Below, in pieces: positions 37,317-57,546 of a stretch of DNA of 64,000 bases (within the stretch, counting starts at the first letter, position 1; each line of letters opens with the position of its first letter). Source of the DNA: Humisphaera sp. (GTDB lineage: Bacteria; Planctomycetota; Phycisphaerae; Tepidisphaerales; Tepidisphaeraceae); assembly GCA_036276235.1 (NCBI GenBank), contig DATBDZ010000403.1, positions 7,100 through 71,099 of the forward strand, read 5' to 3'. The translations under genes and the position numbers were made by a program. The notes under the pieces are model-generated. The model searched no databases. It was given only the letters and a program-made list of their open reading frames with translations, and was not told the DNA's origin.

Positions 37317-37326
37317 TGGTTCATCG

Positions 37327-38241: not shown

Positions 38242-38292
38242 ACCTCAGCATGACGACGTTCGAAGGACATTGGGTGCCCAACAATCGGTCCT

Positions 38293-40536: not shown

Positions 40537-43500
40537 TCACCCGACTGTCATGGTCCCATTTCCGGTGACGTTCAAATTATCGACAATCAGCAGCGAGCCA
40601 AACGTATCCAGCGGCGTCCCCTTCATGTCTGTTCCGCCATTGCCGGTGACGGACAGGCCCGCTGACGCGGCGTAGACTGCGCCGGTGACGGAGAGATTGC
40701 CGTTGCCGGTGACGCTGATGGTTGCGGTGGCGCTGCGCGATTGGAAGAGCGTGATGCCCTGATAGATGCCGCTGGAGATCGGGGACAACTGCACGCGGCC
40801 GTTGCCAGTGAAGGAGATGCCGTCGGCGGCGCTGGCGGCGTCGTTGTAGATCATGACGCCTTTGCCCAGGTCGGTGAGCATGGCCTGGCCGCTGACCGTG
40901 AAGCCGCCGCCTTTGATGTAGTAGATGCCGGGACTGAGCGTGACGTGGGCCTGGCCGCTGATGTTGATGCCGCCGATGTAGAGGCCGGGGCTGAGAACGA
41001 TCGTCGTGTTGCCGCTGATTTGCAGCGTCTTTGTGCTGCGGACGATCAGGCCGGAGGTGCTGGGCGCCGGCAGATCCGCCAGTGGATCGAGAGCTGGTGC
41101 GTGTTTGCTGATGGGGCCGGAGATGGTGCCGTGGCCGCTGGTCGACGTGCCGCCGGTTACGTCAAACTCTGAAGCGCCGATCGATGCGTTTCCGGAAACA
41201 ACTACCGCCGCTGCGTCGGATGAATTGACGGAGACGGCGCCGCTGGTTTGGAGCTTTGCGTTGCCGCTGGCGGTCAGCGCACCTCGTTTGGAATTGGAAA
41301 GCAGGATGATCCCGCTGCCGGTGGCGGCGGCGGTGACGTTGATCGTGCGCGAGGTGTCGGAAGAGCCGCCGTCCTTGTCGGTGGCCGTGAGCTTTATAGT
41401 GTAGACGCCCGCATCATCGGGCGTGAAGGAGAACGCAGCGCCGCTGCCGGTGGCGAAGTTGGTGGTGAGGCTGCCTTTGGTTTTGGTCACCAGCCACGCG
41501 AAGGTGAAGCCGGCGGTGGTGTCTGCGGAAGAGGGATCGGTCGCCGCGCCAGTGAGCGAGATCAGCATGCCGATGGTGGAGGATGAAGGAGCGCCGTTGA
41601 TGGTTGGCGTTGGCGCAATGTTGGCGATGGTTGCTGCCTGTGCGGTGGGTGATGCGGTGCCTTGGCCGGCGTTGTCCTTGATAGAGATCGAGATTGTGAA
41701 CGATCCGTTGTCGGCGTAGGTGTTGTTGCCGCTGACGCTGAAGACGCCGCCAGCCAGCGTGACCGTGCCAGGTGATGTATGGCCATCGCCCCAGTTGATG
41801 GTGGCGCTGAAGTCGCCCGCAGTGGCAATCGGATTGTTGCTGATGAAGCTGGCGACGATGACACCGGAAAGCGCAGTGCCTTCCGATCCGCTGATGCTCT
41901 TGCCGACGGCAGTCAGCGTCGTCGCCTGCACACTCAGCGTGCCGGGCGTGATGGAGACGTTGTAGTTGGCCAGCTTGCTGCCGGGGTCGAGCAGGCTGAC
42001 GTTGATGGCATACGGCCCGACCGGGGACGTGACTCCTGCCGTCGTGGAATAGACGGCGGTGATGTTGTCGCCATTCTGGATGCCCGTGATCGTGCCGGTG
42101 AACGGCGGATTGTTCTGGCCATAGACGCGCGACTTTCCATCAGCGGTCACCGAGAGCGAACCCTTGGCGATGCTGAGAGTCGCACTATTGCTGGAAGGCA
42201 GATTGTTTTGATCTCCGGCGAAGGAGACATCAATCTTGGCCGAGCCAGCGCCGAGCGTACCGATGGAGATATTTGAAATCGTCGCGACGCCATTGGAGTC
42301 GGTGTTGATTGAGCCGACGGTGACGCCGTTGAGCTTGAAGAGCAGCGAGCGGCCGGAAAGCGGCGTGCCGCCGGCGGTGAGTGTCGCCGAGAGCGTGGTT
42401 GTGCCGCCGTAGGTTGCGGAAGCCGCAGTAGCGGCGATCGAGGTCTGAGCCGGCTTTATAGTTGCAGTGACGCTAGCGCCGGCGGTGCCCTTGCCGCCGT
42501 CGTCGTCGGTGACGCTCACGAGAATGCTGAACGTGCCGGCGGAGCTGTAGGTGTGATTGAGCGAGAACGTCTTGTCTGCCGCCAGCGTCAGCGGAAGATT
42601 GCCGGTGCCGTCGCCGTAGTTGACGACGGCGGTCCAGGTGTCGGCGCCGGGATCGGTGAAGGATCCGCCGATGGTGAAGGGCGTTCCGACGGTGATTGGC
42701 GGCACGGTTCCAAGCGTAACGTTCGGCGGAACGTTGAGCACCGTCGCCTGTGCGGTCTGCGATGCCGATCCCTGGCCGGCGTTGTCGTGGATCGTGATGG
42801 CCATGCTGTAGTTTCCGTTGTCGGCGTAGGTGTTGCTGCCGACGACCTGGAACGTTCCGGCCGCCAACACCACGTTGCCAAAGGAAGTGTGTCCATCGCC
42901 CCAATCAATGCTGGCGGAGAAGTCAGCCGTGGTGGCGATGGGGTTGTCGCTGGTGAATGTCGCGACCACCGTACCGACCAGGGGCGTGCCTTCGGAGGTC
43001 GTGAAGAAGGACCCGGAGCCAGCGAGCGTTGTCTTGAGGACCGTCAGCGTGCCAGGGGTGATCGAGACGTTGTAGTTGCCCAGCCGGCCGCTGGGATCGA
43101 GCAGCGAAGCACCAATCGGATACGGCCCCACCGGCGAGATATTGGTGGCGATGGTGGAATAGACGGCACTGATATTGTCGCCGCCAACAACACCGGCAAG
43201 CGTGCCGGTGAGTTGCGGATTGTTCTGTCCATAGACGCGCGATTTGCCGTCAACAACGACCGAGAGCGGCGCTTTGGCGATCGTGAGCGTGGCCGTTCCA
43301 TTTGTGCTGGCGTACTGGGCGTCGCCGGCGAACAGAGCCGTGATCCCCACCTGTCCGGCGTTCAACCCAACCAACGATACAGCGGGCAGCGTCGCCACGC
43401 CGCTGGCGTTAGTCGCCGCGGTGCCGACCGCCGCGCCATTGAGTTGGAAGGTCACCAACTTGCCCGCGATCCCAGTACCGGCTGCACTGAGCGTGGCGGA

Positions 43501-46500
43501 GAGTGTTGTCTGCCCGCCATACGTTCCCGAAGCCGAGGCGGCGGCCAATGATGTCGGGGTGATGACATTCTTCACGGTGACGTGCGTTGTCGCCGACCCC
43601 GAAAGGCCGGAGCTATCGAGCACCGTCACCACCACGCCAAATGTGCCGGCGGCGTTGTAGACGTGATCCAGATCGAAGGTCTTGTCGTCGTTGAGATCGA
43701 GCGGCTGCGCGCCCGAGCCGTCGCCGTAATCGACCGTAGCAGTCCACGTCTCGTCGTCGGGGTCGATGAACGAGCCACTGGAAGCATAATGATCGCCCTC
43801 GTTGATGGTGGCATCAGGGCCGGCGCTTACCGTCGGGGCAACACCGGGGGCGGCGACAATGACAATGGTCTGGAAGTCGCGCGCGACGCCGAAATCCTTG
43901 TCGTACACGTGCAGGAAAACGTCATATGTGCCGGGCACGGTAGGTGTAAAGGAGAAGTCCGGCGTCGAAGCAAAGAAATCAGCCTCGTCGTCTTCCTGGA
44001 ATGCTTCCCATGAGTATTGGAATCCCGCCGCGGTATCGACCGGCGAAATGTCGGAAGCCGGCGCGGTAAGATTGATCGGAACGCCAACCTGCCCCTGCGC
44101 GGGCAAGCCAATGATATGTGCCACGGGTGGCACGTTCGAAACGTTGATCTGTACGGTGCTCGACCCGATACCGCCGTCGCTATCGGTGACCGTGAAAGTC
44201 GCCATGTAGGTGCCGTTGTCGTTGGGCACGAAACTGAAATTCGCGCCGCTGCCGTCGGCGATCACCTGCCCGTTGGTACTGGTGACGTGCCAGTTGAGCG
44301 TGTAAGTATCCTGCGTGCCGGGATCGGTAAACGTGCCCTTCAAATTCACCGGATCCACCTCAAAAACCTGCTGCAGGCTCGGCTCGGCATCGACCGTCGG
44401 CGCGACGTTCAGTACCGCAAGCGTTGTGGGAGAGGAGATAACCACGTGACCCTGCCCATCATCCACGCGCACTTTGACGGCAAATGAGCTGGGGCCATTT
44501 ACAATTCCAAACGCCGCGAGCTGTGCCCAGGTAAAGGTCGGCTTGGGGCCAGTGGCGTCACCGAAGACGCCGTCGCCGTTGATGTCCCACGAGATGGTGA
44601 TCGGGTCGCTGTCCGGGTCGTCGGAGAGCGAGCCGTCGAGCGCGAGAGTATCGCCTTCATTGATGGTGTAGGGCCCGCCGGCATTGGCCGTCGGCGGACG
44701 ATTGGGCGCGATGACGCCGCTGGTCATAGCCAGTGCCTGCGAGAACTCGGATGTATTGTTCAGCAGATCGGTCGCGGTGGCGGTAATGAATTGGCCAACC
44801 GGAACCGCCGTGTTGAAGGTGAATGTGAACGAGGCATTGCCAGAAGCATCAGTGGAGACGAAGTGAGCGCCCAGCGGCGTCTGCCCTTGGCCAAACCCGG
44901 TTGGATCGGCCGCCGCATTGGCGAAGAATTGAAGCAGGAACGCGGCGCCCGGCGCGCTGTTGAGGGTTCCGGTAATAGTCGTTTTCACGCCGTCCGTGGC
45001 GGCGGTCGCCAGCACGGGATAGTTTTGCAGATTATTGTCGCCGCTGTCGGCGTCACCCGCATCGTTGGGGGTGACGCCGTTGCCGTTCAGATCAATTCCA
45101 AGACTGGCGTTGGCGAATATCCGGTTGGAGAGAATGCCAATATTCTGGCCCGCCAGAATGTTGACACCAGCATGACCATTGAAGGCGATGACATTTCCCG
45201 CGCCAGGATCGGTGCCGCCAATCATTCCCCCGATCACGCTAAATCCGTTCGTTCCCAAGCCGAAGTCAGCGGCAACGCTGACGCCGTCGAAGCCATTACC
45301 CAGTGGGCTTACTCCGTCGGCTTTGGTCCCGATGAAGTTGCCCTCAATGACGTCGCCGGAGACAACGCCCGAGCTCCCCGCGACGGTGATGCCGGAACGA
45401 TTGTTGCCCGAAATGAGATTTCCAGCGCCGGGTGCGGTGCCGCCGATCAGCGTATTGCTGGCCGCGTCAAAAATCCCGTCATTGAGGTTCCCCATATCGA
45501 CGGTGCCCGTGATGTCAGTGCCGATGAAATTGCCCTGCACTACGACGCCCGCGCCGCTAATTTGGATGCCGAAGCTATTGTTGGCGATGATGTTTCGTGC
45601 CGCGGCGATGGTCCCGCCGATGGTCACGCCGCTCCCGGCGATGATTCCGGTGCCGCCCGGGTTGGCCATCGCCTTGGTGCCGGTGATGTCGGTGCCAATG
45701 AAATTGCCCTGCACGAGAGTGCCGGCACCACCGACGTTCAGCGCGTCCCCGAGATTGCCGGAAATGACGTTGCCGGCGCCAGGCGCCGTGCCGCCAATCG
45801 TATTGTTGTTGCCGCCGACGGCGATCGCAAAGCTGCCAAATGCGGTGCCGCGCCCATTGGCCAGGGCCTTGGTTCCCGTGACGTCAGTGCCGATCAGGTT
45901 TCCCTGAATGATGTTGTTGTCGCCATGGATGTTCAGACCGCTGGTCAAGTTGCCGGAAATGATGTTACGGTCATTCGGCTTGGCGCCGCCGATGAGGTTG
46001 TTGTTGCCACTGACCGTGGGAGCCTGAAGATTTTTGAGAATCTGCGTGCCGGTGACATCCGTGCCAAAGAAGTTTCCCTGAATGACGTTGTTGTTGCCGC
46101 CGACGGCCAAGGGTACTCCACCCCATTGAGACGTATCAGATGTATTGTCGAAGAAGCTGTAAAAGCTATTGATGGCAAAACCCTTGATGGTGCTATCGTT
46201 GGCCCTCAGCAGAAGGCCTACCAGATGCACATCGCCCGGCGAGCCGGAAAGATCGCGGTGTTCCATTTTGGTGCCGACGATCTGAATCAGGGGCGTGCCG
46301 GCGTAGCCGGGCTGGGTGGTGGCGTCGATGGTAATGGAATCAATGATGGCGGGAAGCGGGACGAGCGGCGCGATGGTCTGCACGCCGCTGCCGATGGCAA
46401 AGCGGATGGTGTCCGGCCCCGGATGATTGTTGGCCGCGAAAATTGCTTCTCTCAGGCTCGTATGCGTCGCGTCGGCGATGCCGTCGTCCACGTCGTCGGT

Positions 46501-49500
46501 CGTGTTCACGGTGTAGACGTTGCCCAGCACATCGCCCACGGCGAGCCGCACTGAGAACTCAGACGTGTTGTTACCGGGATCCGTGGCGGTCGCGGCGATC
46601 AACTGGCGATTGGCAACCGCGACACTAAACGCGACCGTGAACTCGACATAGCCGTTGCCGTCCGTTGTAACATTTGCGGAGCCAATCAACGTCTTGCCCT
46701 GGCCATAGCCGGAGGCAGTGGTTGTCGGATTGCTGAAGAACTGCAGCAGGTAGTTTCGATTCGGGCGGCTATTGAGATGCCCGGAAATGGTGATCTGTCC
46801 CCCGCTGCTCATCGCGGACGTAAGGACAGGGTAGTTCTGCGGATCGGAAAAGGTAGTATCCGTGAGGCCGCTGTCATTGAGGTCAGCGGCAGTGCCGGCG
46901 CCGACATTGATTCCAACAACTTTGTTGCCATAGATGCTGTTGGAGAGGATGGCGTTGCCGTTGTCCGGCACCCAGTTTTCGACGCCGTCGTTTCCGTTGA
47001 ATGCGATGACATTTGCGGCGCCAGGATCAAGCCCGCCGACCGTTGTGTTCACCGCGCCGTTGGCTGGAATGAGCACGCCGTCCTGCAGGTTGCCCAAGGC
47101 GGTTGTGCCGTCAGCGGCGACACCAATGTAGTCTCCTCTCACAGCAACGAAGAATCCGAGGTCCACGTCAACACCATCGAGCGTGTTGCCGGAGATGACG
47201 TTGCGCGTCGCGGCAGTGGTGCCACCGATCACGCCGTTGCCATCGTCAACCAGAACACCCCAGCGATTGCCCAGCGCGGTCATCCCCGTCACGTCAGTAC
47301 CGATGTAGTTGCCCTCGACGTGGAAAGCGAACGGGCGGATGTTGTTGGGACGGAAGATTTCGATGCCAGCGTCTCCCCAGCGATTGATCACCATGCCGCG
47401 GATCGTGACGCTTGATGACGTGACATATAGTCCGCTGCCGAAGGTGGACTGTCCGCTCAATTCGATGATCGGGTTGCCCGTGAAGCCCGGCTGCGTGGTG
47501 CCGTCGATCGTGACCGCATCACTGATGAACGGCAGCGGCGACAGCGGCGTGATGGTATGCACTCCGCCGCCGCCGATGTTGAAATCGATCAGGTCCTGAC
47601 CGAAGTGATTGTTGGCGTTAAGGATTGCCTGGCGCAGTGAACCGGGCCCGCTGTCCAGCGTGTTCGTGACGAAGAAGTGGCCGGCGTTGTCGTTGTCAAT
47701 AATGTTGAGCGTCGCGGTGCTGGTGTCCTGGCTCAGCAAAGCGCCGCCGGTGGTCTGGCTCAAAGTGAGATGGATGGTCTCCGTGTGCTCGGCGATGGAG
47801 TCATCGAAGATGGGAATGGTGAAGGTCTTGACGTATTCGCCGTCGGCGAAGTTGAGCGTCCCTGAGGCGGCAAGATAATCCGAACCTGCGGTGGCGGTGC
47901 CGTCGCTGGTCGAATAGTTCACGCTCACGGCTCCGTTCGTGCCGGCGCCGCGAATTACGGTAATTTCGGCTTCGCGATCGCCTTCAGAGACATTGGCGGA
48001 AGTTTGCTGGAATTCCAGAAGGCCCGGCCCGGGGCCTTGCGCATTTAGCGCTTCCCACTGGCCGATATTCAACTCGCCATCGATATCAGGCGATTCCGGC
48101 GCGCCATCGGCGGCCTGAGGGTTCTCGCCAAAGTAATATTGGATGTGTGACCAGTCATTGAAGCCGTTGAACTTTTCGCCGGTAATGCCGTCGCCGTTGA
48201 TGTCCAGACCGGTGGTGATCGTGTCGTTGTTCGCTGTGCCGTCGTGATCGGCGTCGCTTTGACTCCAGTCCACGGGTCCGGTTTCCAGGACGAAGTTGCC
48301 TTTTGGCCCAACCGGCTCCCACCGGCCTGCGATGCCGCCGATGCCGTTGCTCTCTACAAGATTGTTCTCGTCCAATGGGTTGATAACGGTGTCGGAATAG
48401 CTCGGGGACCATACTTCAAAGTCGCCAAAGTGCTTATTGCCGTTGAGGTCAAATTCAGTGAAAGGTTCACCCGGATCTTTGACGCCGTTGTGGTTGATGT
48501 CATTGAAATCCTGAATGCCGTTGCCGTTGGTATCCTCCTTCATCCAGTCTTGTGGCGTCGTCCAGTTATAATTCATGACGCTGTTGTAATTGGGCTTGGT
48601 GTTCAAATCGTCGCCGCCACCGTGCCGCAGACCCAGCGTGTGCCCGAGTTCATGCATGAAGGTGCCGGCCTGCTGCTGGGTGGTGCCGGCCCAGCCATAG
48701 TTGAGGGTGACGATCAAATCGTTGCCGCCAACTTCGGCAATCCCTGAAGTGGTGACGTCAGTACCCCCCACGCCGTTGGTTGGTCCGCCCACCGGGCGAT
48801 TAACCGCAAAACCAAGTGCAAATAGCGCATACCGATACGTCAGACGTTTGGCGTCCATGGCAGCGGAGTTAGACCGCTGCTCGTCACTGTCGCCAAAACC
48901 CCCTATTCCATGTACGCCGGTTTGCTTGATGTCCCGGAACCAGACGAATGGGTCCTGGTCCGCCGGATCGCCATAGTCGAGACGGCCGTTGCCGTTCACA
49001 TCTTCACCCGGATCGAGTTTTCCGTTGGCGTTTCGATCTTCGCCCAGCGCATCCACGCCGTTGCCATTGCGGTCCCCGAACCACGTCTGGTCAGGGATAA
49101 CCTCGTTCAGCGCGGCGTGCAGGGTGATGCCCGTGCTCCCATCGGGGTTGGCGACCGGCGCGGCGGCAAAGGAATCAATAACAATCTGCAGGGCACCTGG
49201 GTTGGGCACGACACTCTGCATCGCGTCCACCTCAACGTAAATATCTTTGCGCATCGGATTGGCGCCGGGAAGAGTGAGATCAACCGTGCCATCTTCGTCT
49301 ATGTCGATGCCGCGCGTCTCCCAAGCGTCGGCAAGGCCGTCGGCGTCGCTGTCGATCATCGAGAACTCGGATGTGTTCCCGGTCGGATCAGTGGCCGTCG
49401 CGGAAATGAATTTTTCGTCAGGATGGAAGATTTCGCCGACGGTCACGTTGCCGTTTGAATCCGTCGTGACGGTATCAGAGGTCACGAAAGTTCGGCCGTC

Positions 49501-52500
49501 CCCGAAGCCCGAGGGGCTCGGCTCGGAGTTGGAGAAGAAGTCCAGCTTAAAGACGGTGTTCGGTGTGCTGTTGAGCGTGAATGTAATCACCGTGTTCGAG
49601 CCGCTGGCGGCGACGCCGGTGACGACTGGTGCATCCTGCACGGGATCATTCGGATGGGTGCTGTCCTGGAAGTCATTGATGGTGAAAGTGTCCGGGCTGG
49701 CCAGATTCACCAGATCGATTCCGCGGCCGGCGTTCTCGAAGATGGAGTTGGCGCGGATCGAATTGGACGCGCCGGCAGTCACCTCAACGCCGTACCCCTT
49801 TACGGCAAGTGACGCGCCGTTGAACACGATGGTATTGGGCTGCAGCTTTAAGACGCCGCCGATCACATTATGATTCGCGCCATTGAACGCCTCGACGCCA
49901 TATCTTTGGTTTCCCTCCTTGATGGTGGCGGCAGGATCTGTGCCGATGAAATTCTGATAGAGCTGATTATTAGCCGCCGTGGCTCCCGTGATGGCAACGC
50001 CATCACCTTCGTTGCCGGAAATGACGTTTCCCTGGCCAGCGACGGCGGCGCCAATGAAGTTGCCGGGGGCACCGTCGAGCCGCACTCCGTCCCCTTGATT
50101 GCCAAGGGCCTTAGCGCCGGTGCTGTCCGTGCCGATGTAATTTCCCTGTATTAAGTTGGCCGTGGCGTCTTTCCCATTGATGTACAGCCCGACGCCGTCG
50201 TTGCCGGAGATCAGGTTGCGCTTATCGGCGCCGCCGCCGACGACGTTGTTCGGCGCATTATTGATGAAGATGCCGGCTGATGAATTGGGCGCGGGCGCCG
50301 CGCCGGTCACGTCAGCGCCGATGTAGTTGGATTCGATGAAGTTGTCCGTCGCACCGGTGCCCGTGATGACAACACCGGCGCTGCCATTGCCGGAGATCAC
50401 GTTGCGTGCGCTGGCAGCGCCGCCAATGGTGTTGCCGGCAGCGCTCTCGATGAGAACACCATCCTGCACGTTGGGGACTGGTACCAGTCCCGTGATGTCC
50501 ATGCCGATGAAGTTGCCCAGGACATTGTTGCTGCTTGCCGTGCCAGAAGCTGCGCCGCTGATCACAACGCCCGATCCTGTGTTGCCGGAGATGACGTTTC
50601 CCGCCGGCCCCGACGCCGAGGGTGTGCCGGCGGCGCCGATGGTGTTCCCGGAGGAATCGAAGAGCGCCACACCATGACGCCCGTTCGGCAGCGCTTTAGC
50701 GCCCGTCGAATCCGTGCCGACGAAATTGCCCAACACGGTGGTGGTCGTCGTGCTCGATGTGATCTGTATGCCGTCGTTGCCGTTGCCGGAAATAACATTA
50801 CCCGCGCCCGGCGTGCTGCCGCCGACGACGGTGCCGACGGGTCCGTTCGGAGTAATCAGCGCGGTGAGGAACAGACCATTGCGCACGTTGGCCAGCGCGT
50901 GAAGACCGGTGATGTCAGTGCCGATGTAGTTGCCGGCGATCACATTTCCGGTGGATGTTTTGTCGCCGATTACAATGCCATCCGACGCGTTCCCGGAGAT
51001 GATATTTCGCGCCGCGGCCGTGGTTCCGCCGATCACGTTGAGCGACGATCCAAAAATATCGATGCCGTCCAGTCCATTGGGCCGCGCCAGCAAGCCGGTG
51101 ATATCCGTGCCGATTAGATTTCCCAGCACCTGGTTTCCTGTCGCCGACCCTCCGATGACAATGCCGCTTTTTGTGTTTCCCGAAATTGTGTTTCGCGCTT
51201 GGAGCGACGTGCCGCCGATGATGTTGTTGACTGAACTGTTGATCTCGACGCCGTACACAGTGTTCGGCAGCGCCGTGAGGCCGGTGACATCCAGGCCGAT
51301 GGAATTGCCGAGCACCTGGTTGGCGACGGCCCCGCTGCCCAATGCGCCAGCGCCAAGGAAAACTCCATCCTCCTTGTTGCCGGAGATGACGTTGCGCGAA
51401 CCGGGGTCTGTTCCGCCGACCGAGTTTCCGGTCGAATCGAAGATAGCCACGCCGTCGCGCCCATTAGGCAGCGGAGAAAGTCCGTCGGCGGTCGTGCCAA
51501 CGAAATTGCCCAGGATTGCGGTGCCGGTGGCGCTATTGATGATCTGTATGCCGTCGCGATTGTTGGCGGAGATGATGTTACCCGCGTGGTCGGCGGCACC
51601 GCCGATGATGGTATTGGTTGCCCCATCGATCAGAACGCCGTCGATGCCGAACCGCGGATCCGCGCTAGTGCCGGCGGTTCCATTTGCCAGCGGCGTGACG
51701 CCGTCGGCTGCAACGCCGATGTCGTTTCCCTCGACGATGTTTTTGTCGCCGCCTTTGATCCAAACGCCGGCCTGCCCGTTGCCGGAGATCACGTTGCGCA
51801 ACGCCGGTGTGGTACTTCCAACGACATTGCCCGAAGCAAAGCCGTCGCCGGGCGTCGGCGAGGGCGGTGCGCCTAATGCAACGCCATTGAGCTTATTGCC
51901 CAGCGGCAGCATGCCGGTGATGTCCGTCCCGATGAGATTCCCGACGATGGTCGTGCCTGTGGAATATTGATCCGCAACAAACACGCCGCTCTGGGCGTTG
52001 CCGGAAATCAAGTTGCCTTGGATCAGATCGTGCGGCGAATAGATTAAATGGACTCCGCTGATGTGGTTTGGCATCGCCACCGTCCCGGTCGGGTCGGTGC
52101 CTATGAAGTTTTTCAGGATGCTGTTTCCGCCGACGGCGCCGGGTCCGGTTGGCTCGGCGAAGACGATGCCATCGAACGCGAAGCTGTGGATGTCCAGCCC
52201 CGCGATCACGTTGCCGCCCACTTTGATCTCCAGCCCGTTGCAGTTGCCCGCCTGGCTTCCATCCAGCTCAATCAACGGCTTGCCCGCGTAACCGGGCTGC
52301 GTGGTGGCATCGATGGAAACCGGATCGGTAATTTGCGGAAGGAAAAACGTCGGCGCGATCTTCTGGACGCCGCCTCCGGGAATATTGAACGTAATGGCGT
52401 CAAACCCAGAATTGCTGTTGGCCTGCTGAATGGCGTCGCGCAGCGAGCCACTTCCGCTGTTGTTCACATTCGTCACGACGTACGAATTGAGCAGCGTGCG

Positions 52501-52701
52501 ATCTTCCAAGGCCTCGATCGCATAGCGAACGGCGGACTTCAGCGCGCGCGACGACGACTGACGACGCAAAGATGTACTACGCTTCAACGTGGCTCCCGCT
52601 CCAGAGATAGGCCGATCGTCTGCCGGCGACGGCGCGCCCCACAGCGCGCAAAATAAACTTTGCCGGCTCCCTTCGCTTGATAAGCGATCAATCAGCCGCA
52701 A
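40537..52701 (-). CDS. giant (about 4000 aa) multidomain surface/secreted protein: 3 beta-helix modules, metzincin-like protease, Calx-beta, PKD/Ig/MBG-like arrays
   Basis: One uninterrupted 12.2-kb ORF.
- Module heads are GSGSLRDAIQQAN, GPGSLRQAILNAN and HTSLREAIFAAN; module ends are ATATDP.GNTSEFS.
- Dozens of GN.IGTD.TG beta-helix-type repeats.
- HELGHTLGLRHGG at about 48616-48654.
- DxDxDG calcium-binding runs.
- Calx-beta-like segment at about 47700-48000.
- PKD-like and YGQNNP (MBG-like) domains.
- No ATG start: TTG 52701 or TTG 52587 are the candidates. Confidence 0.9.
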   Translation of the reverse strand: MRLIDRLSSEGSRQSLFCALWGAPSPADDRPISGAGATLKRSTSLRRQSSSRALKSAVRYAIEALEDRTLLNSYVVTNVNNSGSGSLRDAIQQANSNSGFDAITFNIPGGGVQKIAPTFFLPQITDPVSIDATTQPGYAGKPLIELDGSQAGNCNGLEIKVGGNVIAGLDIHSFAFDGIVFAEPTGPGAVGGNSILKNFIGTDPTGTVAMPNHISGVHLIYSPHDLIQGNLISGNAQSGVFVADQYSTGTTIVGNLIGTDITGMLPLGNKLNGVALGAPPSPTPGDGFASGNVVGSTTPALRNVISGNGQAGVWIKGGDKNIVEGNDIGVAADGVTPLANGTAGTSADPRFGIDGVLIDGATNTIIGGAADHAGNIISANNRDGIQIINSATGTAILGNFVGTTADGLSPLPNGRDGVAIFDSTGNSVGGTDPGSRNVISGNKEDGVFLGAGALGSGAVANQVLGNSIGLDVTGLTALPNTVYGVEINSSVNNIIGGTSLQARNTISGNTKSGIVIGGSATGNQVLGNLIGTDITGLLARPNGLDGIDIFGSSLNVIGGTTAAARNIISGNASDGIVIGDKTSTGNVIAGNYIGTDITGLHALANVRNGLFLTALITPNGPVGTVVGGSTPGAGNVISGNGNDGIQITSSTTTTTVLGNFVGTDSTGAKALPNGRHGVALFDSSGNTIGAAGTPSASGPAGNVISGNTGSGVVISGAASGTASSNNVLGNFIGMDITGLVPVPNVQDGVLIESAAGNTIGGAASARNVISGNGSAGVVITGTGATDNFIESNYIGADVTGAAPAPNSSAGIFINNAPNNVVGGGADKRNLISGNDGVGLYINGKDATANLIQGNYIGTDSTGAKALGNQGDGVRLDGAPGNFIGAAVAGQGNVISGNEGDGVAITGATAANNQLYQNFIGTDPAATIKEGNQRYGVEAFNGANHNVIGGVLKLQPNTIVFNGASLAVKGYGVEVTAGASNSIRANSIFENAGRGIDLVNLASPDTFTINDFQDSTHPNDPVQDAPVVTGVAASGSNTVITFTLNSTPNTVFKLDFFSNSEPSPSGFGDGRTFVTSDTVTTDSNGNVTVGEIFHPDEKFISATATDPTGNTSEFSMIDSDADGLADAWETRGIDIDEDGTVDLTLPGANPMRKDIYVEVDAMQSVVPNPGALQIVIDSFAAAPVANPDGSTGITLHAALNEVIPDQTWFGDRNGNGVDALGEDRNANGKLDPGEDVNGNGRLDYGDPADQDPFVWFRDIKQTGVHGIGGFGDSDEQRSNSAAMDAKRLTYRYALFALGFAVNRPVGGPTNGVGGTDVTTSGIAEVGGNDLIVTLNYGWAGTTQQQAGTFMHELGHTLGLRHGGGDDLNTKPNYNSVMNYNWTTPQDWMKEDTNGNGIQDFNDINHNGVKDPGEPFTEFDLNGNKHFGDFEVWSPSYSDTVINPLDENNLVESNGIGGIAGRWEPVGPKGNFVLETGPVDWSQSDADHDGTANNDTITTGLDINGDGITGEKFNGFNDWSHIQYYFGENPQAADGAPESPDIDGELNIGQWEALNAQGPGPGLLEFQQTSANVSEGDREAEITVIRGAGTNGAVSVNYSTSDGTATAGSDYLAASGTLNFADGEYVKTFTIPIFDDSIAEHTETIHLTLSQTTGGALLSQDTSTATLNIIDNDNAGHFFVTNTLDSGPGSLRQAILNANNHFGQDLIDFNIGGGGVHTITPLSPLPFISDAVTIDGTTQPGFTGNPIIELSGQSTFGSGLYVTSSSVTIRGMVINRWGDAGIEIFRPNNIRPFAFHVEGNYIGTDVTGMTALGNRWGVLVDDGNGVIGGTTAATRNVISGNTLDGVDVDLGFFVAVRGDYIGVAADGTTALGNLQDGVLIPANGAVNTTVGGLDPGAANVIAFNGNDGVENWVPDNGNAILSNSIYGNKVVGINVGAGTAADLNDSGLTDTTFSDPQNYPVLTSAMSSGGQITISGHLNSRPNRNYLLQFFSNPTTTASGYGQGKTLIGSANVTTDGNGYVEFTVAFSVAVANRQLIAATATDPGNNTSEFSVRLAVGDVLGNVYTVNTTDDVDDGIADATHTSLREAIFAANNHPGPDTIRFAIGSGVQTIAPLVPLPAIIDSITIDATTQPGYAGTPLIQIVGTKMEHRDLSGSPGDVHLVGLLLRANDSTIKGFAINSFYSFFDNTSDTSQWGGVPLAVGGNNNVIQGNFFGTDVTGTQILKNLQAPTVSGNNNLIGGAKPNDRNIISGNLTSGLNIHGDNNIIQGNLIGTDVTGTKALANGRGTAFGSFAIAVGGNNNTIGGTAPGAGNVISGNLGDALNVGGAGTLVQGNFIGTDITGTKAMANPGGTGIIAGSGVTIGGTIAAARNIIANNSFGIQISGAGVVVQGNFIGTDITGTVDMGNLNDGIFDAASNTLIGGTAPGAGNLISGNNRSGITVAGSSGVVSGDVIEGNFIGTKADGVSPLGNGFDGVSVAADFGLGTNGFSVIGGMIGGTDPGAGNVIAFNGHAGVNILAGQNIGILSNRIFANASLGIDLNGNGVTPNDAGDADSGDNNLQNYPVLATAATDGVKTTITGTLNSAPGAAFLLQFFANAAADPTGFGQGQTPLGAHFVSTDASGNASFTFTFNTAVPVGQFITATATDLLNNTSEFSQALAMTSGVIAPNRPPTANAGGPYTINEGDTLALDGSLSDDPDSDPITISWDINGDGVFGDATGPKPTFTWAQLAAFGIVNGPSSFAVKVRVDDGQGHVVISSPTTLAVLNVAPTVDAEPSLQQVFEVDPVNLKGTFTDPGTQDTYTLNWHVTSTNGQVIADGSGANFSFVPNDNGTYMATFTVTDSDGGIGSSTVQINVSNVPPVAHIIGLPAQGQVGVPINLTAPASDISPVDTAAGFQYSWEAFQEDDEADFFASTPDFSFTPTVPGTYDVFLHVYDKDFGVARDFQTIVIVAAPGVAPTVSAGPDATINEGDHYASSGSFIDPDDETWTATVDYGDGSGAQPLDLNDDKTFDLDHVYNAAGTFGVVVTVLDSSGLSGSATTHVTVKNVITPTSLAAASASGTYGGQTTLSATLSAAGTGIAGKLVTFQLNGAAVGTAATNASGVATLPAVSLVGLNAGQVGITALFAGDAQYASTNGTATLTIAKAPLSVVVDGKSRVYGQNNPQLTGTLAGVVGGDNISAVYSTIATNISPVGPYPIGASLLDPSGRLGNYNVSITPGTLTVLKTTLAGSGSFFTTSEGTPLVGTVVATFTSDNPIATTADFSASIDWGDGHTSFGNVVLAAGTFQVVGSNTYADNGNYSMAITIHDNAGQGSASQTAQATVLNVPPNVTLGTVPPITVGTPFTIGGSFTDPGADTWTAVVNYGDGTGNLPLTLAADKTFSLNHTYSSAGTFSILVSVTDDDGGKGTAGASVTATIKPAQTSIAATAASATYGGTTTLSATLTAGGTPLSGRSLLFKLNGVTVGSINTDSNGVATISNISIGTLGAGSAKIDVSFAGDQNNLPSSNSATLSIAKGSLSVTADGKSRVYGQNNPPFTGTITGIQNGDNITAVYSTTAGVTSPVGPYAINVSLLDPGSKLANYNVSITPGTLSVQATTLTAVGKSISGSEGTALSGVIVASFISNNPIATAGDFSATINWGDGHTSPGTVTLAGGVFSVSGNNTYADNGSFTISISIKDNAGQGTASPTAQAATIANIAPTPTINGAPSSSTIGMLISLTGAATDPSSADTTAGFTFAWLVTKTKGSLTTNFATGSGAAFSFTPDDAGVYTIKLTATDKDGGSSDTSRTINVTAAATGSGIILLSNSKRGALTASGNAKLQTSGAVSVNSSDAAAVVVSGNASIGASEFDVTGGTSTSGHGTISGPISKHAPALDPLADLPAPSTSGLIVRSTKTLQISGNTTIVLSPGLYIGGINISGQAHVTLSPGIYYIKGGGFTVSGQAMLTDLGKGVMIYNDAASAADGISFTGNGRVQLSPISSGIYQGITLFQSRSATATISVTGNGNLSVTGAVYAASAGLSVTGNGGTDMKGTPLDTFGSLLIVDNLNVTGNGTMTVG

Positions 52702-52947: not shown

Positions 52948-53794
52948 TTAACGGTCACCAAATTGCTTTCCGATTACACTTTGCCCGTCGGAAAGGGAAA
53001 TCGAGAAGACGCCGCTTTTTGGAGCGGTTCGCGTGAAGCCACTCTTAGGCACTTCCCGCAAGTGATAAGAACCGGCGGGGACCACGAAATTGAACTTGCC
53101 GTCAGGGCCGGTCGTGTAGCTTGCCTCGCCCGCGTTAAGCTTCCCGTTGTTGTTTGTATCGAGATAGACTACCCACCCAGAAAGCCCAAGCTCGCCCCCA
53201 TCTTGCGTACCGCTGGCATTTGTGTCTTTGAAAACAACACCGCTGATCAAAGCCCGTGTCGTATCGGCAAATATCTTGCCGGTCGTGCTTTGACCAGCCG
53301 AAAGTGTGACGTCGAGGTAGCCCTGCGTCGGGCTGGTCGCTCGCGAGCCTGCTGGTAGTATCTGGCGGATGCAATAGGTCCCGGCGGTCAGCGTTTTGAA
53401 TGTGAACGTGCCGTCGGATGCCGTGAGAGTCGACGGCTCGCCAGTGTCGAGCGTGCCACAAGTGATCGCCGTCCGCCAACGTTGTCGTATTCCCATTGAA
53501 CGCGAAGCCATGTCCCGCGCCCGCCGTTCCCGCCCCCTCGTCCGTACCATCTACGAAGAACTCGACGTGATCCAAGTTCGAGTCGGTCGCGGTTGCGACG
53601 AGAACGAGCGGACCCTGCGCGAAGCTGTTGTTCGCCGGCGAAGTGGCGGTGATTACCGGGGCGGCGGTATCCACAGTGAACGTAAACGACGGAACGTTGA
53701 CGGTGACATTCCCCGCATTGTCGGTGGCGCGTGCCTGTTCCGTGTAAGAACCGTCTCCCAAGCCGCTAAGGCTGTAATTCCAGGAGTCAAACAA
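52948..53794 (-). pseudogene. 5'-truncated and frame-disrupted Ig-like / SdrD-B(Cna-B)-like surface protein gene
   Basis: Two overlapping ORFs (53135..53794 and 52948..53550) carry consecutive parts of one protein: an Ig-like YSLSGLGDGSYTEQARATDNAGN..FTVDTAAPV part, then Cna-B-like ISGVVFKDTNASGTQDGGELGLSGWVVYLDTNNNGK. The frame switches near 53440-53480. There is no start or signal peptide. Confidence 0.5.
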
Positions 53795-53826: not shown

Positions 53827-53833
53827 TTAATGA

Positions 53834-53907
53834 TGGGCCCGAGAAGAGTCGAACTTCTGACCTCGTCCTTATCAGGGACGCGCTCTAACCAACTGAGCTA
53901 CGAGCCC
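53834..53907 (-). tRNA. tRNA-Ile (anticodon GAU)
   Basis: Hand-folded cloverleaf: GGGCTCG TA GCTC AGTTGGTTA GAGC G CGTCC CTGATAA GGACG AGGTC AGAAG TTCGACT CTTCT CGGGCCC A. CCA is not encoded. Confidence 0.9.
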
Positions 53908-54110
53908 GGGTTTTTCTCCGCTTCCGTGCCGTCCTATCGGTCGGAAACGGCGTCGGATTGTATGGCGGACGCAGCGCCTGTCAATCACGATGCGATGCCG
54001 TTGAGACATTAGGTGATGTCTGTGAACAGCCTCGCCGCCGAGCCCCTCGCCTACGGACGGTGATTGAATCACCGAAGCGCTCTGCGGCTTTGCGCTTTCA
54101 GATGATTCGA

Positions 54111-54953
54111 TCATTTCGGCGCTGCACCTTGCGGCTCTCCCACCGTCACCCTGCCGATGTAGGCGACGGCTTTGCCGTCTTTATCCATGGAGCCGGCGTC
54201 TACCGTCATCACGATGAATGACTTGCGCGGCTGGACGGGGCCTTTGTGCGACAAGGTCGCTGAGTGAATGATTGGGGATTTGGCGTCGCCGTTTTGCAGG
54301 GCGCTTTCCAGCATCGAGGAGACCTCGATGCTCAGGTCCAGGTCCAAGCCGGCGGTGTCGGCTTTTCCCGCCAATGAGAATATCGCGCCCGTGTGGAGGT
54401 AGGCGATTGTGTTCATGACCTGTCCGCGCGCGGTCATGTTCGAGCCGGTGACGTAGGGGACTTGCGCGCCGATGGAAACTGTGTCGCCGGACAGACGGAT
54501 GGATTGATCGGCGCGGTACATCGGCTTGGCGGTCCCCAGCGCACCGAGCGCCTTTTCGAAGGCGTCCGCGCTGTCGGCGGCGTTGGCCAGGGCGGCGACA
54601 TCCAGCCGTCCGATTTGCTCGGCGGGAATGCGCACGTCGTAGAGGGTTGCGCTGAAGGTGCAGGTGGGACCTTCGCCGAGAACAGGAGTGCGGGAGATTG
54701 TTGAGGATCCAAAGCCGCCCCGTCCGCCGCCGCCAGCCATAACACCGCCGCCCGCCATAACACCACCGCCTCCAAAGCCGGACGCGGCACGGGTGGCCGG
54801 AGCATCGGTGCGTGGTCCGCGGCGGCCGGCGCCGCTGGGCGGTTCCTGCTGCTGCGCCTCAAGCAGGGTCGCGGGGGCGAGCGCCATCAGTAGAAACAGA
54901 ATTGTCGCAATCTTGCTCAGGCTGGTCGCGGACGTTTTCTTTCGCGCGTTCAT
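54111..54953 (-). CDS. secreted paralogue of the BlaR1-like sensor domain (secretin-like beta domain, tentative)
   Basis: Signal peptide and a Gly-rich linker. The next ~200 aa are collinear with the C-terminal domain of the upstream M56 protein (GEGPTC.F.ATLYDVR.P...IG.L ... KDGKAVAYI.RVTVG). Confidence 0.75.
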   Translation of the reverse strand: MNARKKTSATSLSKIATILFLLMALAPATLLEAQQQEPPSGAGRRGPRTDAPATRAASGFGGGGVMAGGGVMAGGGGRGGFGSSTISRTPVLGEGPTCTFSATLYDVRIPAEQIGRLDVAALANAADSADAFEKALGALGTAKPMYRADQSIRLSGDTVSIGAQVPYVTGSNMTARGQVMNTIAYLHTGAIFSLAGKADTAGLDLDLSIEVSSMLESALQNGDAKSPIIHSATLSHKGPVQPRKSFIVMTVDAGSMDKDGKAVAYIGRVTVGEPQGAAPK

Positions 54954-54987
54954 GATGGGTCCCTTCGTGGAAGTGATGGGTGTCTGA

Positions 54988-56985
54988 TTACCTGGATTGC
55001 AAATCCCCTACTGTGACTCTTGCGATGTAGGCGACGGCCTTGCCGTCCTTATCGAGCGAGCCGGCGTCCACAGTGATAACGACGAACGATTTACCTGGTT
55101 GCACCGGGCCTTTGTGCAGGAGGCTGCACGTGTGAATGATCGGCATCAGATTGTCCGCTGTGCCGACGATCGACACAGTGCTCTCAGACTGGGATGAGAG
55201 CTGAATGCTCAGATCCAGTTCGATGATGTCCGGCGAGGCGGCCTTGCCGGCCAGCAAGAAGGTAGCGCCGGTGGAGATGTAGTTGATCGTGTTGATGTTC
55301 TGTCCGTCAGCGCGGATCGACGTGTTGCTGACATAGGGGCTGTTGGAGCCGATGTTGATTCTGTCGCCGGACAGCCGGACCGATTGATTGGCGCGGTATA
55401 TCGGCTTGGGCACGCCCAGCGCCGCCAGCGCCTTCTCGAAGGACTCGGCCGATTGGGCCACGTTATCCATCGCTCCCGCGCTGAGCTTCCCAATCCGATC
55501 GATCGGCATGCGCACGTCGTAGAGGGTGGCATCAAAATGACACGTTGGTCCCTCACCCGTTACCGGCGCCGTCGGGCCGCCGAAGCCGCGGCCCGATCGG
55601 CCGCCCGCAAAGCCGCCGAAGCCGGACGGTTCCGGTTGAGGGGCTGGGCGCGTCGTCGGCGGCGCTGCGGGCGTGCCGCCGGAGCCGGCCGCGCCGCTGT
55701 TAGCTGGCGGCTCCTGCCCGGCGGGAATCTGTGGGACCTGCGCCTTGAGGATGGCTCCTGGCACGATTGCCCCCAGCAATAGAACGACCATCAGGGCGCG
55801 ATATCGTGCGCTGGTTCCGCGACGGCTTACGCTAACGTCAAGTATCGCGCGCATGCGTTCTTCCAGGGTGGATGGGCGCGCCATCGCCATTGCTGTGCCG
55901 GACAATGTGAATGCGGGAAACGATGGGACCGAGATGCTCTCCAGAAGATGGCGGGCGTATGCTCGCGCATCGGTGCCGCTGTTGAGCACCAGGTCATCGC
56001 AGGCCCGCTCGCGCTCGACCTGCATTCGCCGATCGGCGATCCATACGAGCGGATTAAACCAATAAAGCGCGCAGGCAATCTGCGACAGCAATTGGCTGAG
56101 GCAATCCCCGCGCTTGAGGTGGCCCAGCTCGTGCAGGAGCACGTCGCGCCGTTGTGCCGTCGGCCATTGGTCGGCCTCTTGCGGGAGTAGCAATCGAGCA
56201 TGCAACAAACCCCACGTCATTGGCATCGAGCGCGCGGGGCTTTGCAGGAGCTCGACCGGGCGGCGGAGATTCAGCTCGCGGCAAAGGCGCTGAAGCAGAT
56301 CGAACATCTCGCCGTCGGTGATGACGATGCAGCGCCGCCGCAACAGCCACAAACTCATGTTGCCAAGCAACAGGCGAACGATCAGCAGCAGAGTTCCAAA
56401 GGCCCAACAGAGCAAAAGCCCGGGCGTCCATGGAAATGGCGGGCGATGCGTAATTCCTACAAGCTTTTGCTGAGGCGCAGGCGCAGGGGCCTGCCGCAAT
56501 GGCGCGGCATCTGCCGGCAAGACAGTCGACGGAGCTGGGGACGGATCAGTCGCCGGCGACTCGATATTGACGTTGGCGGTCGCCTCGTGATTGCGCGCCG
56601 ATGTAGCCGCTGGAGATTGCGGCGACTGCACCTGTGGCAGCGCCGGCGCAGGTTGGGCTGGAAGAGATATGGCTTGCTCCGTGGAGTGCGCCACCTGAAC
56701 ATGAACGACACTTGTCTCAGTAGGCACGCCACGCATGTGCGGCAGGACGTGCCAACCCGGCAGCATCGCCGACAGCACGGGCAGGAGAAGCGCACCAACG
56801 GCCCCCGCCAGCCACACGCCATGCCGCGTGGCGGCCGACGCGCGGCGCATCGTCAGTGCTACAATCGTGGCCAAAGCGATCACAACCGCGCTGCCAACGG
56901 CGGCGCGGAGCAAATGCGGCGACAGGCGATCCAACACGGCCGCGCATTCCTGAACGGCCGGCAGCGCCAGATGGGGCAACGCCAT
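54988..56985 (-). CDS. BlaR1/MecR1-type M56 peptidase signal transducer with non-canonical C-terminal sensor domain
   Basis: TM helices. HExxH in VLLHELGHLKRGDCLSQLL (M56 signature). Pro/Gly-rich linker. The ~200-aa C-domain is shared with the 54111 gene. ATG lies 1 nt after the BlaI stop. Confidence 0.85.
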   Translation of the reverse strand: MALPHLALPAVQECAAVLDRLSPHLLRAAVGSAVVIALATIVALTMRRASAATRHGVWLAGAVGALLLPVLSAMLPGWHVLPHMRGVPTETSVVHVQVAHSTEQAISLPAQPAPALPQVQSPQSPAATSARNHEATANVNIESPATDPSPAPSTVLPADAAPLRQAPAPAPQQKLVGITHRPPFPWTPGLLLCWAFGTLLLIVRLLLGNMSLWLLRRRCIVITDGEMFDLLQRLCRELNLRRPVELLQSPARSMPMTWGLLHARLLLPQEADQWPTAQRRDVLLHELGHLKRGDCLSQLLSQIACALYWFNPLVWIADRRMQVERERACDDLVLNSGTDARAYARHLLESISVPSFPAFTLSGTAMAMARPSTLEERMRAILDVSVSRRGTSARYRALMVVLLLGAIVPGAILKAQVPQIPAGQEPPANSGAAGSGGTPAAPPTTRPAPQPEPSGFGGFAGGRSGRGFGGPTAPVTGEGPTCHFDATLYDVRMPIDRIGKLSAGAMDNVAQSAESFEKALAALGVPKPIYRANQSVRLSGDRINIGSNSPYVSNTSIRADGQNINTINYISTGATFLLAGKAASPDIIELDLSIQLSSQSESTVSIVGTADNLMPIIHTCSLLHKGPVQPGKSFVVITVDAGSLDKDGKAVAYIARVTVGDLQSR

Positions 56986-56986
56986 A

Positions 56987-57370
56987 TCAGTCTCCTTGCT
57001 TGATCGCTTTGTCGATCAGATCGGAAAGACGACGCAATTCTTCCGGGGCGGCGGTACGCCGCGGGTCGCTCAGATGGGCGGCGACGGCGTGCTCGAGCGA
57101 GCCGCCGAAGAACACATCCAACACGCGGCCCAGCGCCGACTTTCCCGCCTGCCCACGCGCCTGTGTCGGGCGATAGATAAACTCGCGCCCCAGCTTGTGA
57201 TGCTTCAGATGTCCTTTGCTTTCCAGGATGCGGAGCAAGGTCCGCAGTGCGCCGCGCATGGGCGGATCTGGAATTCCGTCCATGATCTGCGAGACGCTCG
57301 CCTCGCCGCGGGCGTAGACCGCATCCATGATCTGCCGCTCGCGCTTGCTCAATTGCCGGGGGTCCGCCAT
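56987..57370 (-). CDS. BlaI/MecI/CopY-family transcriptional repressor
   Basis: 127 aa. LSKRERQIMDAVYARGEASVSQIMDGI....RGALRTLLRILESKGHL..HKLGREFIYRP is the winged-helix penicillinase-repressor pattern. Confidence 0.9.
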   Translation of the reverse strand: MADPRQLSKRERQIMDAVYARGEASVSQIMDGIPDPPMRGALRTLLRILESKGHLKHHKLGREFIYRPTQARGQAGKSALGRVLDVFFGGSLEHAVAAHLSDPRRTAAPEELRRLSDLIDKAIKQGD

Positions 57371-57396
57371 CGAGGTTCTCCATCAGCTTTCCTACT

Positions 57397-57416
57397 AAGG
57401 ATAATAATTTATCCTT
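57397..57416. promoter_or_regulatory. candidate BlaI operator (perfect 8-4-8 palindrome AAGGATAA TAAT TTATCCTT)
   Basis: Lies 27-46 nt upstream of the blaI-like ATG, in an AT-rich patch of the promoter region. Confidence 0.45.
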
Positions 57417-57546
57417 TGGAAAGTTGCAGTCAATTGAAAAAATCTTTGCGGCGATGTAAGCGGCCGTGCGCCCTTACACCGCCGGCGAACGATCCGTCAG
57501 GGGAGCGCGCCAGTTTGTATGGCCAACGCGACCAGGTCCGAACATT

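Follow-up and report, generated by a model that had tools for sequence, protein, structure and literature searches.

Gene organisation and predicted operator of the module

The window analysed here, a stretch of 64,000 nucleotides (nt) from Humisphaera sp. (assembly GCA_036276235.1, contig DATBDZ010000403.1, positions 7,100 to 71,099 of the forward strand), harbors a module of the BlaI/BlaR1 type, in which a repressor and an M56 transducer are accompanied by a predicted secreted protein, the free paralogue, that shares a secretin-homologous domain with the C-terminus of the transducer. The listing of open reading frames (ORFs) and direct reading of the sequence gave three co-directional minus-strand ORFs of 127, 665 and 280 amino acids (aa), which agrees with the original prediction, made from the letters of the sequence, of three tightly packed genes spaced by 1 and 34 nt. 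The repressor stop codon (TGA, 56987–56989) is followed after one base by the M56 start codon at 56985 (TGAtATG), with an AAGGAG ribosome-binding site 7 nt before this ATG, and the M56 start appears to be translationally coupled to the blaI stop. The full M56 ORF (54988–56985, minus strand) is separated by 34 nt from the ATG of the free gene (54111–54953, minus strand), which possesses its own GAAGGGA ribosome-binding site. The promoter and terminator scan called neither a promoter-like site nor a consensus terminator in this 34-nt gap, and its two consensus terminator-like matches within the coding sequences equal the shuffle expectation. The features of the module are as follows.

57428–57433, minus strand: -35-like hexamer TTGACT of the operon promoter (promoter scan; TTGAC invariant at the same place in 7 aligned loci)
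57397–57416, no strand assigned: palindromic operator (predicted) AAGGATAA-ATTA-TTATCCTT, core GGATAA-N4-TTATCC at 57399–57414, over the -10 region
56987–57370, minus strand: BlaI/MecI/CopY-type winged-helix repressor, 127 aa (PF03965)
55735–56985, minus strand: M56 transducer, residues 1–417 (PF05569, BlaR1 structure match, hydropathy)
55567–55734, minus strand: Gly/Pro-rich, probably disordered tether, M56 residues 418–473 (14 G, 12 P and 9 A of 56 residues)
54991–55566, minus strand: secretin-homology sensor domain fused to M56, residues 474–665, predicted periplasmic (domain hidden Markov model (HMM) E 1.9e-87; 60% identity to the free copy)
54855–54953, minus strand: signal peptide or signal anchor of the free paralogue, residues 1–33 (predicted boundary ...LLEA/QQQ; hydropathy)
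54687–54854, minus strand: Gly-rich linker of the free paralogue, residues 34–89 (18 G of 55 residues)
54114–54686, minus strand: secretin-homology domain of the free paralogue, residues 90–280 (AlphaFold2, Foldseek, dN/dS)
54061–54113, minus strand: hairpin from the free-gene stop codon, possible operon terminator without a T-run (RNA fold -26 kcal/mol, z = -2.0; weak, and not called by the consensus terminator scan)

The promoter-like site of the operon was read as TTGACT-N16/18, with the palindrome covering its -10 region. In the aligned upstream regions of 7 related loci, the TTGAC box, the 16-bp palindrome and the GGAG ribosome-binding site upstream of blaI were the only conserved blocks. 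The motif GGATAA-N4-TTATCC, with one mismatch allowed, was found in at least 15 distinct BlaI-M56 loci, with exactly one copy in each, placed in every case shortly before blaI; no further copy was detected elsewhere in 357 kb of fetched DNA, none lies upstream of the stand-alone free copies, and the 64-kb window holds no second copy, its only 2-mismatch match being located inside a giant gene at 46846, at chance level. Because the motif is conserved at one position in these loci, the palindrome bears a clear phylogenetic footprint and is predicted to be an autoregulatory operator; the palindrome region 57397–57416 of the original prediction is thereby upheld. Control of the divergent MFS and GH43 genes by this operator was rejected, as that neighbourhood is not conserved in any other locus, and an all-against-all comparison of the ORFs flanking 16 loci disclosed no conserved neighbour gene besides the module itself.

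The repressor matches PF03965 (Penicillinase_R) over its full length (E 1e-23; 84.3 bits against a cut-off of 22.6; model positions 1–114 of 115), and its nearest solved structure is the Bacillus licheniformis penicillinase repressor (1p6r, E 6e-4). The 665-aa protein matches PF05569 (Peptidase_M56; E 6.6e-35, 121.2 bits against a cut-off of 31), with zinc-ligand motifs HELGH at residues 285–289 and ERACD of the ExxxD type, and the cryo-EM chains of Staphylococcus aureus BlaR1 (8exs/8exp) match its residues 192–389 (E 2.4e-7). The earlier naming of a BlaI-like repressor and an M56 (HELGH) transducer was therefore correct. Hydropathy gave four transmembrane (TM) helices, at 28–46, 57–75, 189–207 and 397–415; the loop 47–56 is K/R-rich and the loop 209–395 carries 25 K+R, a charge distribution from which the protease loop is predicted to be cytoplasmic and the C-terminus outside, as in BlaR1. 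The predicted periplasmic loop TM2–TM3 (76–186) contains a Pro/Ala-rich low-complexity insertion of ~106 residues (77–185; 56430–56756), which is left without an aligned BlaR1 counterpart since S. aureus BlaR1 was matched only from residue 192. The sequence of the tether that follows TM4 is not conserved among relatives.

Pfam detected no penicillin-binding, transpeptidase or beta-lactamase domain in the M56 protein, whose C-terminus had indeed been supposed not to be penicillin-binding. NCBIfam blaR1_generic reached 104.6 bits against a cut-off of 400 and was aligned at model positions 106–325 of 585 only, that is, the protease half, and the MecR1 and BlaR1 exception models reached 28 and 21.7 against a cut-off of 1200. 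The protein thus reads as a member of the M56 family and not as a BlaR1/MecR1 equivalog, and a sensor for beta-lactams or of the penicillin-binding protein (PBP) type was discarded on the same two grounds, the missing domain and the BlaR1 models below their cut-offs.

The shared domain and its homology to secretins

Residues 474–663 of the M56 protein align with residues 90–275 of the free protein at 60% identity and 76% positives over 190 aa (E 8e-70), a similarity that is far beyond chance and that bears out the collinearity proposed for the two. The N-terminus of the free protein displays a basic n-region followed by a hydrophobic stretch at 15–33 (Kyte-Doolittle 2.05), so that the earlier description of a secreted 280-aa product 34 nt downstream is matched by its ORF, its gap and a predicted signal segment; the protein ends in ...GAAPK, without a C-terminal aromatic residue. 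The hydrophobic segments of free proteins (signal peptide) and of M56 fusions (TM4) both end in a conserved L-x-A-Q before the Gly-rich linker (54855–54953 and 55741–55797), and given this common motif, the sensor domain of the M56 protein, too, could be set free by signal peptidase. A single cysteine in GEGPTC at the start of the domain is invariant in the 28 closest sequences and lost in more distant members, with an intermolecular disulphide as its possible role.

Differential constraint was observed along the module, with dN/dS values, computed at a dS of about 1 and hence near saturation, of 0.05 for the repressor (against the orthologue of locus L002), 0.12–0.20 for the free domain, 0.35 for the fused domain, and 0.40 for the linker of the free paralogue compared with 0.19 for its domain. 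Both copies of the domain are under purifying selection, which is stronger on the free copy, and on the values of the latter a pseudogene status of the free gene was rejected.

Against Pfam and NCBIfam, neither the free protein nor the isolated domain gave a match at E ≤ 1, and neither window protein matches Pfam Secretin (PF00263) at E ≤ 1. The kinship became visible with profiles. A profile of 28 sequences searched against the PDB retrieved the secretin domains of PulD (6hcg, E 1e-4) and Escherichia coli GspD (5wq7, 7e-4), and a profile of 100 sequences retrieved PulD (1.5e-7), GspD (1.7e-7), ExeD (6e-4), f1 pIV (6e-3) and RcpA (0.2). The AlphaFold2 model of the free domain (predicted local distance difference test score, pLDDT, 89; predicted TM-score, pTM, 0.82) comprises eight long strands, the first two of which are separated by three short helices. 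All seven of its Foldseek matches at E ≤ 1e-3 were secretins (InvG, pIV, GspD, PulD, PilQ; E 6e-5 to 9e-4, probability 1.00), with TM-scores of 0.32–0.42 and root-mean-square deviations of 14–20 Å; a two-domain model again gave secretins only, FadL and porin matches at probability ~0.2 being disregarded. Several relatives exceed the Pfam Secretin threshold of 27.5 bits (P0027 with 51.5, P0039 with 38.6 and P0075 with 30.5), and 30 of 100 family members match that model at E < 0.01, with coverage never extending beyond positions 2–119 of 169. On account of these profiles, the Foldseek matches and the relatives that pass the Pfam threshold, the resemblance to secretins is a real homology, although several defining features of a secretin proper fail.

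The profile alignment to secretins spans the pattern ..G..VP.VT...G...N.V.Y..vG.., in which the hinge-equivalent glycines lie 27 residues apart both in the window domain and in the aligned PulD stretch, and P81, G92 and G104 hardly vary across the family. The gate-1 hairpin and the inner-barrel strands that follow it form the most conserved part of secretins and correspond to the aligned stretch (gate definition PMC8563730); the shared domain accordingly keeps the gate-1 hairpin. Other parts were not recovered. The N0–N3 and S domains are absent, only a TM or signal segment and the Gly-rich linker preceding the domain; Secretin_N was matched by a single one of 100 family members; the shared domain lacks the C-terminal secretin motif and leaves the last third of the Pfam Secretin model unmatched; and the beta-lip seems to be missing, judging by the position of the three helices in the model. 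The modelled local architecture appears to be shared with secretins, whereas the protomer geometry appears to differ from that of a pore subunit, since the TM-scores are ~0.4.

The likeness to the secretin core had been put forward by eye, with the proviso that a known sensor family associated with BlaR1 might yet be assigned; the searches assigned no such family, their matches being secretins, and the shared domain accordingly does not appear to be a known BlaR1-associated sensor. Other identities were also considered: TonB_C gave no match, a START/Bet v 1 (START/PYL-type) ligand-binding fold was found only at Foldseek probability < 0.5 and TM-score ~0.24, and a relationship to CRISPR Csa5-2 (E 0.004–0.01 over ~70 residues), lacking any fold-search support, was judged spurious.

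Distribution of the domain family and of the fused-plus-free pairing

A HMMER search of 1.84 billion cluster representatives yielded 715 proteins at E ≤ 1e-3 and 344 at E ≤ 1e-10, and the domain thus appears to define a mostly metagenomic family of at least 715 clusters. Architectures were counted in 172 family sequences. Small single-domain proteins (≤ 330 aa) are the commonest form (109/172), and 75 of the 89 free members that start with Met exhibit a signal-like N-terminal hydrophobic segment, ending in ...A-Q and followed by a Gly/Pro-rich linker. Fusions to M56 make up 29 of the 172, five of them with 2–3 tandem copies, and about 25 more are tandem proteins of 2–3 copies without M56. In P0033, an ECF sigma factor is joined to the domain through a single TM helix and a linker; in P0041, a Ser/Thr kinase is joined to it through a multi-TM block. 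As the domain occupies the sensor position in M56 and ECF sigma factor fusions and probably also in the Ser/Thr kinase fusion, it is probably an extracytoplasmic module of at least two, probably three, classes of transmembrane transducers. Further fusions involve SecDF P1-head domains, an HlyD adaptor and EF-hands (P0031/P0039/P0078, P0143, P0106). A lipobox LAGC is present in the stand-alone copy of locus L038 (4755–5546) and in P0082, indicating that some family members are lipoproteins.

The close relatives in named genomes belong to metagenome-assembled genomes (MAGs) of Tepidisphaeraceae and other Phycisphaerae, and judged by the closest of them the host would be a Tepidisphaeraceae-like planctomycete. 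Two loci are labelled otherwise, L006 (CAWFLB010000001.1) as 'uncultured beta proteobacterium' and L009 (JBLNDH010000534.1) as 'Bacillota bacterium'; both carry the same operator-BlaI-M56-domain module as the Tepidisphaeraceae MAGs, and for this reason these two MAGs are probably mislabelled or mis-binned. The M56 gene of L001 and L006 is split over three frames, probably through long-read indel errors.

The recurrence of the pairing was surveyed by HMM scans of 52 fetched loci. A BlaI-M56-domain unit followed by a free copy on the same strand was observed in the window, in L002–L005 (22-nt gap), in L012 (106 nt), in L034 and probably in L023, so that the expectation of a paralogue next to the M56 gene in related genomes held for these loci; it did not hold universally, as nine loci carry the fusion only. 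In L034 (5676–7405), the M56 gene is followed by two free copies in succession, both equipped with a signal peptide; in L037 and L041, two copies lie side by side, the upstream one being truncated by the contig end; and L011 and P0027 contain extra domain copies in the same chain as M56. The spacing of the pair, 22–106 nt on the same strand, is kept across lineages diverged to 69–81% identity. In a neighbor-joining tree, for which no support values are available, the free copies of the window, L002 and L012 constitute one clade that is sister to their own M56 partners, indicating a single duplication followed by retention, while the pattern recurs for L023 within another clade, suggestive of a separate origin. 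The fused-plus-free pairing recurs in 4–7 lineages and probably arose more than once.

Beyond the operon, the next gene on the minus strand is tRNA-Ile(GAT) at 53834–53907, with an 11-of-12 sigma-70-like promoter at 53984–53957 and, directly downstream, a terminator hairpin with a 13-bp stem at 53827–53798. Between this tRNA and the giant gene, two overlapping minus-strand ORFs in different frames (52948–53794) contain Ig-like domains (Big_7, Big_13, SdrD_B, CarboxypepD_reg-like) and probably represent a single adhesin-like gene that a frameshift or a sequencing error has interrupted. The giant gene itself (40537–52701, minus strand) encodes 4054 aa with right-handed beta-helix repeats, PKD, Calx-beta, MBG and Ig-like domains and a reprolysin-like HELGHTLGLRH metalloprotease motif, and its product has the appearance of a giant protein that is secreted or sits at the cell surface. 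At 35214–39315 (minus strand), genes for a MoxR-type AAA ATPase, a DUF58 protein and a BatA/VWA protein follow one another, forming a Bat (aerotolerance)-like cluster.

Proposed mechanism and comparison with known systems

In the mechanism proposed for the module, a BlaI-like dimer would occupy GGATAA-N4-TTATCC over the -10 region and keep the three-gene operon off. The four-TM M56 zinc protease, its active site predicted to be cytoplasmic and its C-terminus periplasmic, would carry, on a flexible Gly/Pro tether of ~55 residues, a compact secretin channel domain homologue of ~190 aa instead of a penicillin-binding domain. Once this sensor alters its binding or assembly state, the protease would become active, the repressor would presumably be cleaved and the operon induced. 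The free paralogue, the sole non-regulatory product of the operon, would be exported by its Sec signal, bear a similar tether, and associate side by side with the tethered domain, in the manner of neighbouring secretin protomers or of the tandem copies of relatives, acting as a co-sensor and feedback element that sets the amount of unpartnered sensor. Operator binding, repressor cleavage, hetero-association and the direction of feedback are steps that we infer, and the input signal is most likely something in the cell envelope. Two layers of this proposal are graded separately. By analogy with BlaI/BlaR1, the general sequence of a repressor on the palindrome, an extracytoplasmic event, protease activation, repressor inactivation and operon induction is very probably the one at work here; the specific layer, an autoregulated proteolytic derepression switch whose tethered sensor pairs with a co-expressed free paralogue, could equally turn out to be right or wrong.

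Secretin-type domains are built for edge-to-edge pairing. In relatives, tandem arrays of 2–3 copies occur in one chain, both after M56 (P0027, L011) and in free proteins, and partner binding is supported by a Rosetta-stone argument, as these relatives fuse the copies that the operon encodes separately. When the M56 domain was joined for modelling to the free domain through the linker of the free protein itself, a pTM of 0.83 was obtained over 442 residues, 48 of them in the disordered linker, indicating that the two domains are confidently placed relative to each other. The recurrence of adjacent free copies, their position as sisters of the respective M56 partners in two clades of the tree, and the dN/dS of 0.12–0.20 for the free domain point the same way. 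Among the roles put forward originally (a decoy, a co-receptor or ligand sharing), indirect support exists for the binding of a partner only.

Several observations weigh against this pairing. The pTM argument derives from an artificial linker-fused construct and an alignment of natural tandem proteins, and was read without a predicted aligned error map or coordinates; the TM-scores of ~0.4 to secretins go with a modelled protomer geometry that appears to differ; and the neighbor-joining tree, as stated, lacks support values. Most of the related switches are without an adjacent partner: nine informative loci (L007, L009, L010, L021, L028, L030, L032, L036 and L001) are fusion-only, with no free copy within 3–6 kb downstream, and the switch thus works there without an adjacent partner, whereas the free copies of L013/14 and L038–40 have no M56, BlaI or operator nearby. 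No ligand, no repressor cleavage site (the S. aureus site was not aligned) and no regulon beyond the operon were identified.

Among the other explanations, the free paralogue might be a decoy or sink, the tethered domain binding a harmful or informative ligand in the periplasm (for instance a fragment of the envelope, a peptide, or a protein from a phage or of the bacteriocin type) and the free copy, which would flood the periplasm upon induction, binding the same ligand, neutralising it and so ending the signal. This would suit its standing as the only non-regulatory operon product, its 60% identity to the sensor, which includes most of the invariant positions, the two free copies after the M56 gene in L034, and its own ribosome-binding site, owing to which it may be made in excess. 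However, neither a pocket nor a ligand is indicated, START/PYL-type folds having stayed below the Foldseek probability and at the low TM-score given above; the supposed decoy is missing from most BlaI-M56-domain loci; and the fused domain evolves faster than the free one (0.35 versus 0.12–0.20), which is unexpected if both domains track the same ligand, so that we regard a decoy as unlikely. In another explanation the free protein would have a structural role of its own and form a secretin-like ring or array at the outer membrane or in the periplasm, which the M56-tethered copy would join or cap, reporting its state and keeping the supply constant as an envelope-homeostasis loop. In secretins, the region to which the domain is homologous builds the sheets between subunits as well as the gate-1 hairpin (PMC8563730), the free single-domain form is the commonest in the family and includes some lipoproteins, tandem chains of 2–3 copies exist, and a tether of ~55 residues could span the periplasm. 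Such an assembly is nevertheless doubtful, because neither the ring-building N0–N3 domains nor the last third of the Pfam Secretin model is present, short helices (26–31, 34–40, 44–54) stand between the first two strands at what is, by reading and not by alignment, the beta-lip position, the ...GAAPK end of the free protein lacks a C-terminal aromatic residue, and a single copy folds confidently as a monomer (AlphaFold, pTM 0.82).

A broader version of the assembly idea would have the secretin channel domain miniaturised in Planctomycetota into a general extracytoplasmic signalling module that works by homotypic assembly: free secreted or lipidated copies would form a secretin-like oligomer in the envelope, which M56 proteases, ECF sigma factors and Ser/Thr kinases would join through their tethered copies, reporting its assembly state to the cytoplasm. 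We consider this improbable as a whole; if true, the operon would represent a self-monitoring envelope structure whose own subunit is made on demand. It is also conceivable that the free protein and the switch have no functional link, the free gene being a by-product of a tandem duplication of the M56 3' end that acts independently or not at all. Duplicating the 3' end of a gene is mechanistically easy, and fusion-only loci and stand-alone free copies are both common; yet the ORF is intact, the free domain is under stronger constraint (dN/dS 0.12–0.20) than the fused copy, the pair is kept at 22–106 nt on one strand in lineages at 69–81% identity, the adjacency appears to have arisen more than once, and the scan called no promoter-like site or consensus terminator in the 34-nt gap, which together make the absence of a link highly improbable.

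Outside Firmicutes, M56/BlaI pairs occur very commonly, yet for hardly any of them is the signal known. The module would provide one large group of such pairs with a defined, structurally confident sensor domain, and the same domain on two other kinds of transmembrane signalling proteins would offer a handle on signalling in the poorly understood Planctomycetota. With its small operon, its conserved 16-bp operator and its soluble domains of ~190 aa, the system lends itself directly to experiment, and, if the tethered and free copies associate, it would exemplify a signalling design that pairs a sensor with a secreted paralogue of itself.

The closest known systems are BlaI/BlaR1 and MecI/MecR1 (S. 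aureus, B. licheniformis), with which the module has in common a PF03965 repressor beside a four-TM M56 protease, HExxH and ExxxD motifs, an extracytoplasmic C-terminal sensor, and a palindromic operator over the promoter of an autoregulated operon. It differs from BlaR1/MecR1 in a sensor that is not penicillin-binding or class-D-beta-lactamase-like, and in its long disordered tether and 106-aa Pro/Ala-rich periplasmic loop; the beta-lactamase or PBP2a target gene of those systems is absent from the module. The operator sequence appears to differ from the staphylococcal bla and mec operators. Atypical BlaIR pairs (Mycobacterium tuberculosis Rv1846c/Rv1845c, M. abscessus BlaIR and Pseudomonas aeruginosa PvmSR) likewise combine an M56 protein with a BlaI-like one and do not sense beta-lactams, their signal being unknown (bioRxiv 10.64898/2026.08.03.742534); their BlaR homologues are without an extracytoplasmic sensor, whereas here a large, different sensor is present together with a co-encoded paralogue. 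The M56-TonB_C fusions of Bacteroides and Xanthomonas (B. thetaiotaomicron TonB1 and TonB10), whose function is uncharacterised (PMC10350073), similarly join an M56 protease, a periplasm-spanning segment and a C-terminal domain derived from an envelope machine, but that domain is the TonB C-terminal one and not secretin-type, and no free paralogue has been described for them.

In the literature searched, neither an M56 protein bearing a secretin-type sensor nor a mini-secretin domain in soluble or tethered form was described, and a sensor that is paired with a free paralogue of itself was likewise not found. With secretins (GspD/PulD, PilQ, InvG, f1 pIV; PF00263), the shared domain has in common the VG-x-x-VP-x-x-T gate-1 hairpin, the subsequent ...L.L.I..EVS.. 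strands and eight long beta-strands; it differs from them in its length of ~190 aa instead of 400–700, in the absence of N0–N3 and S domains, and in being either attached by a tether to a protein of the inner membrane or else secreted together with a Gly-rich linker. We know of the secretin channel domain so far solely as a building block of outer-membrane pores, and its occurrence in the present module would widen the known use of the secretin fold beyond pore formation.

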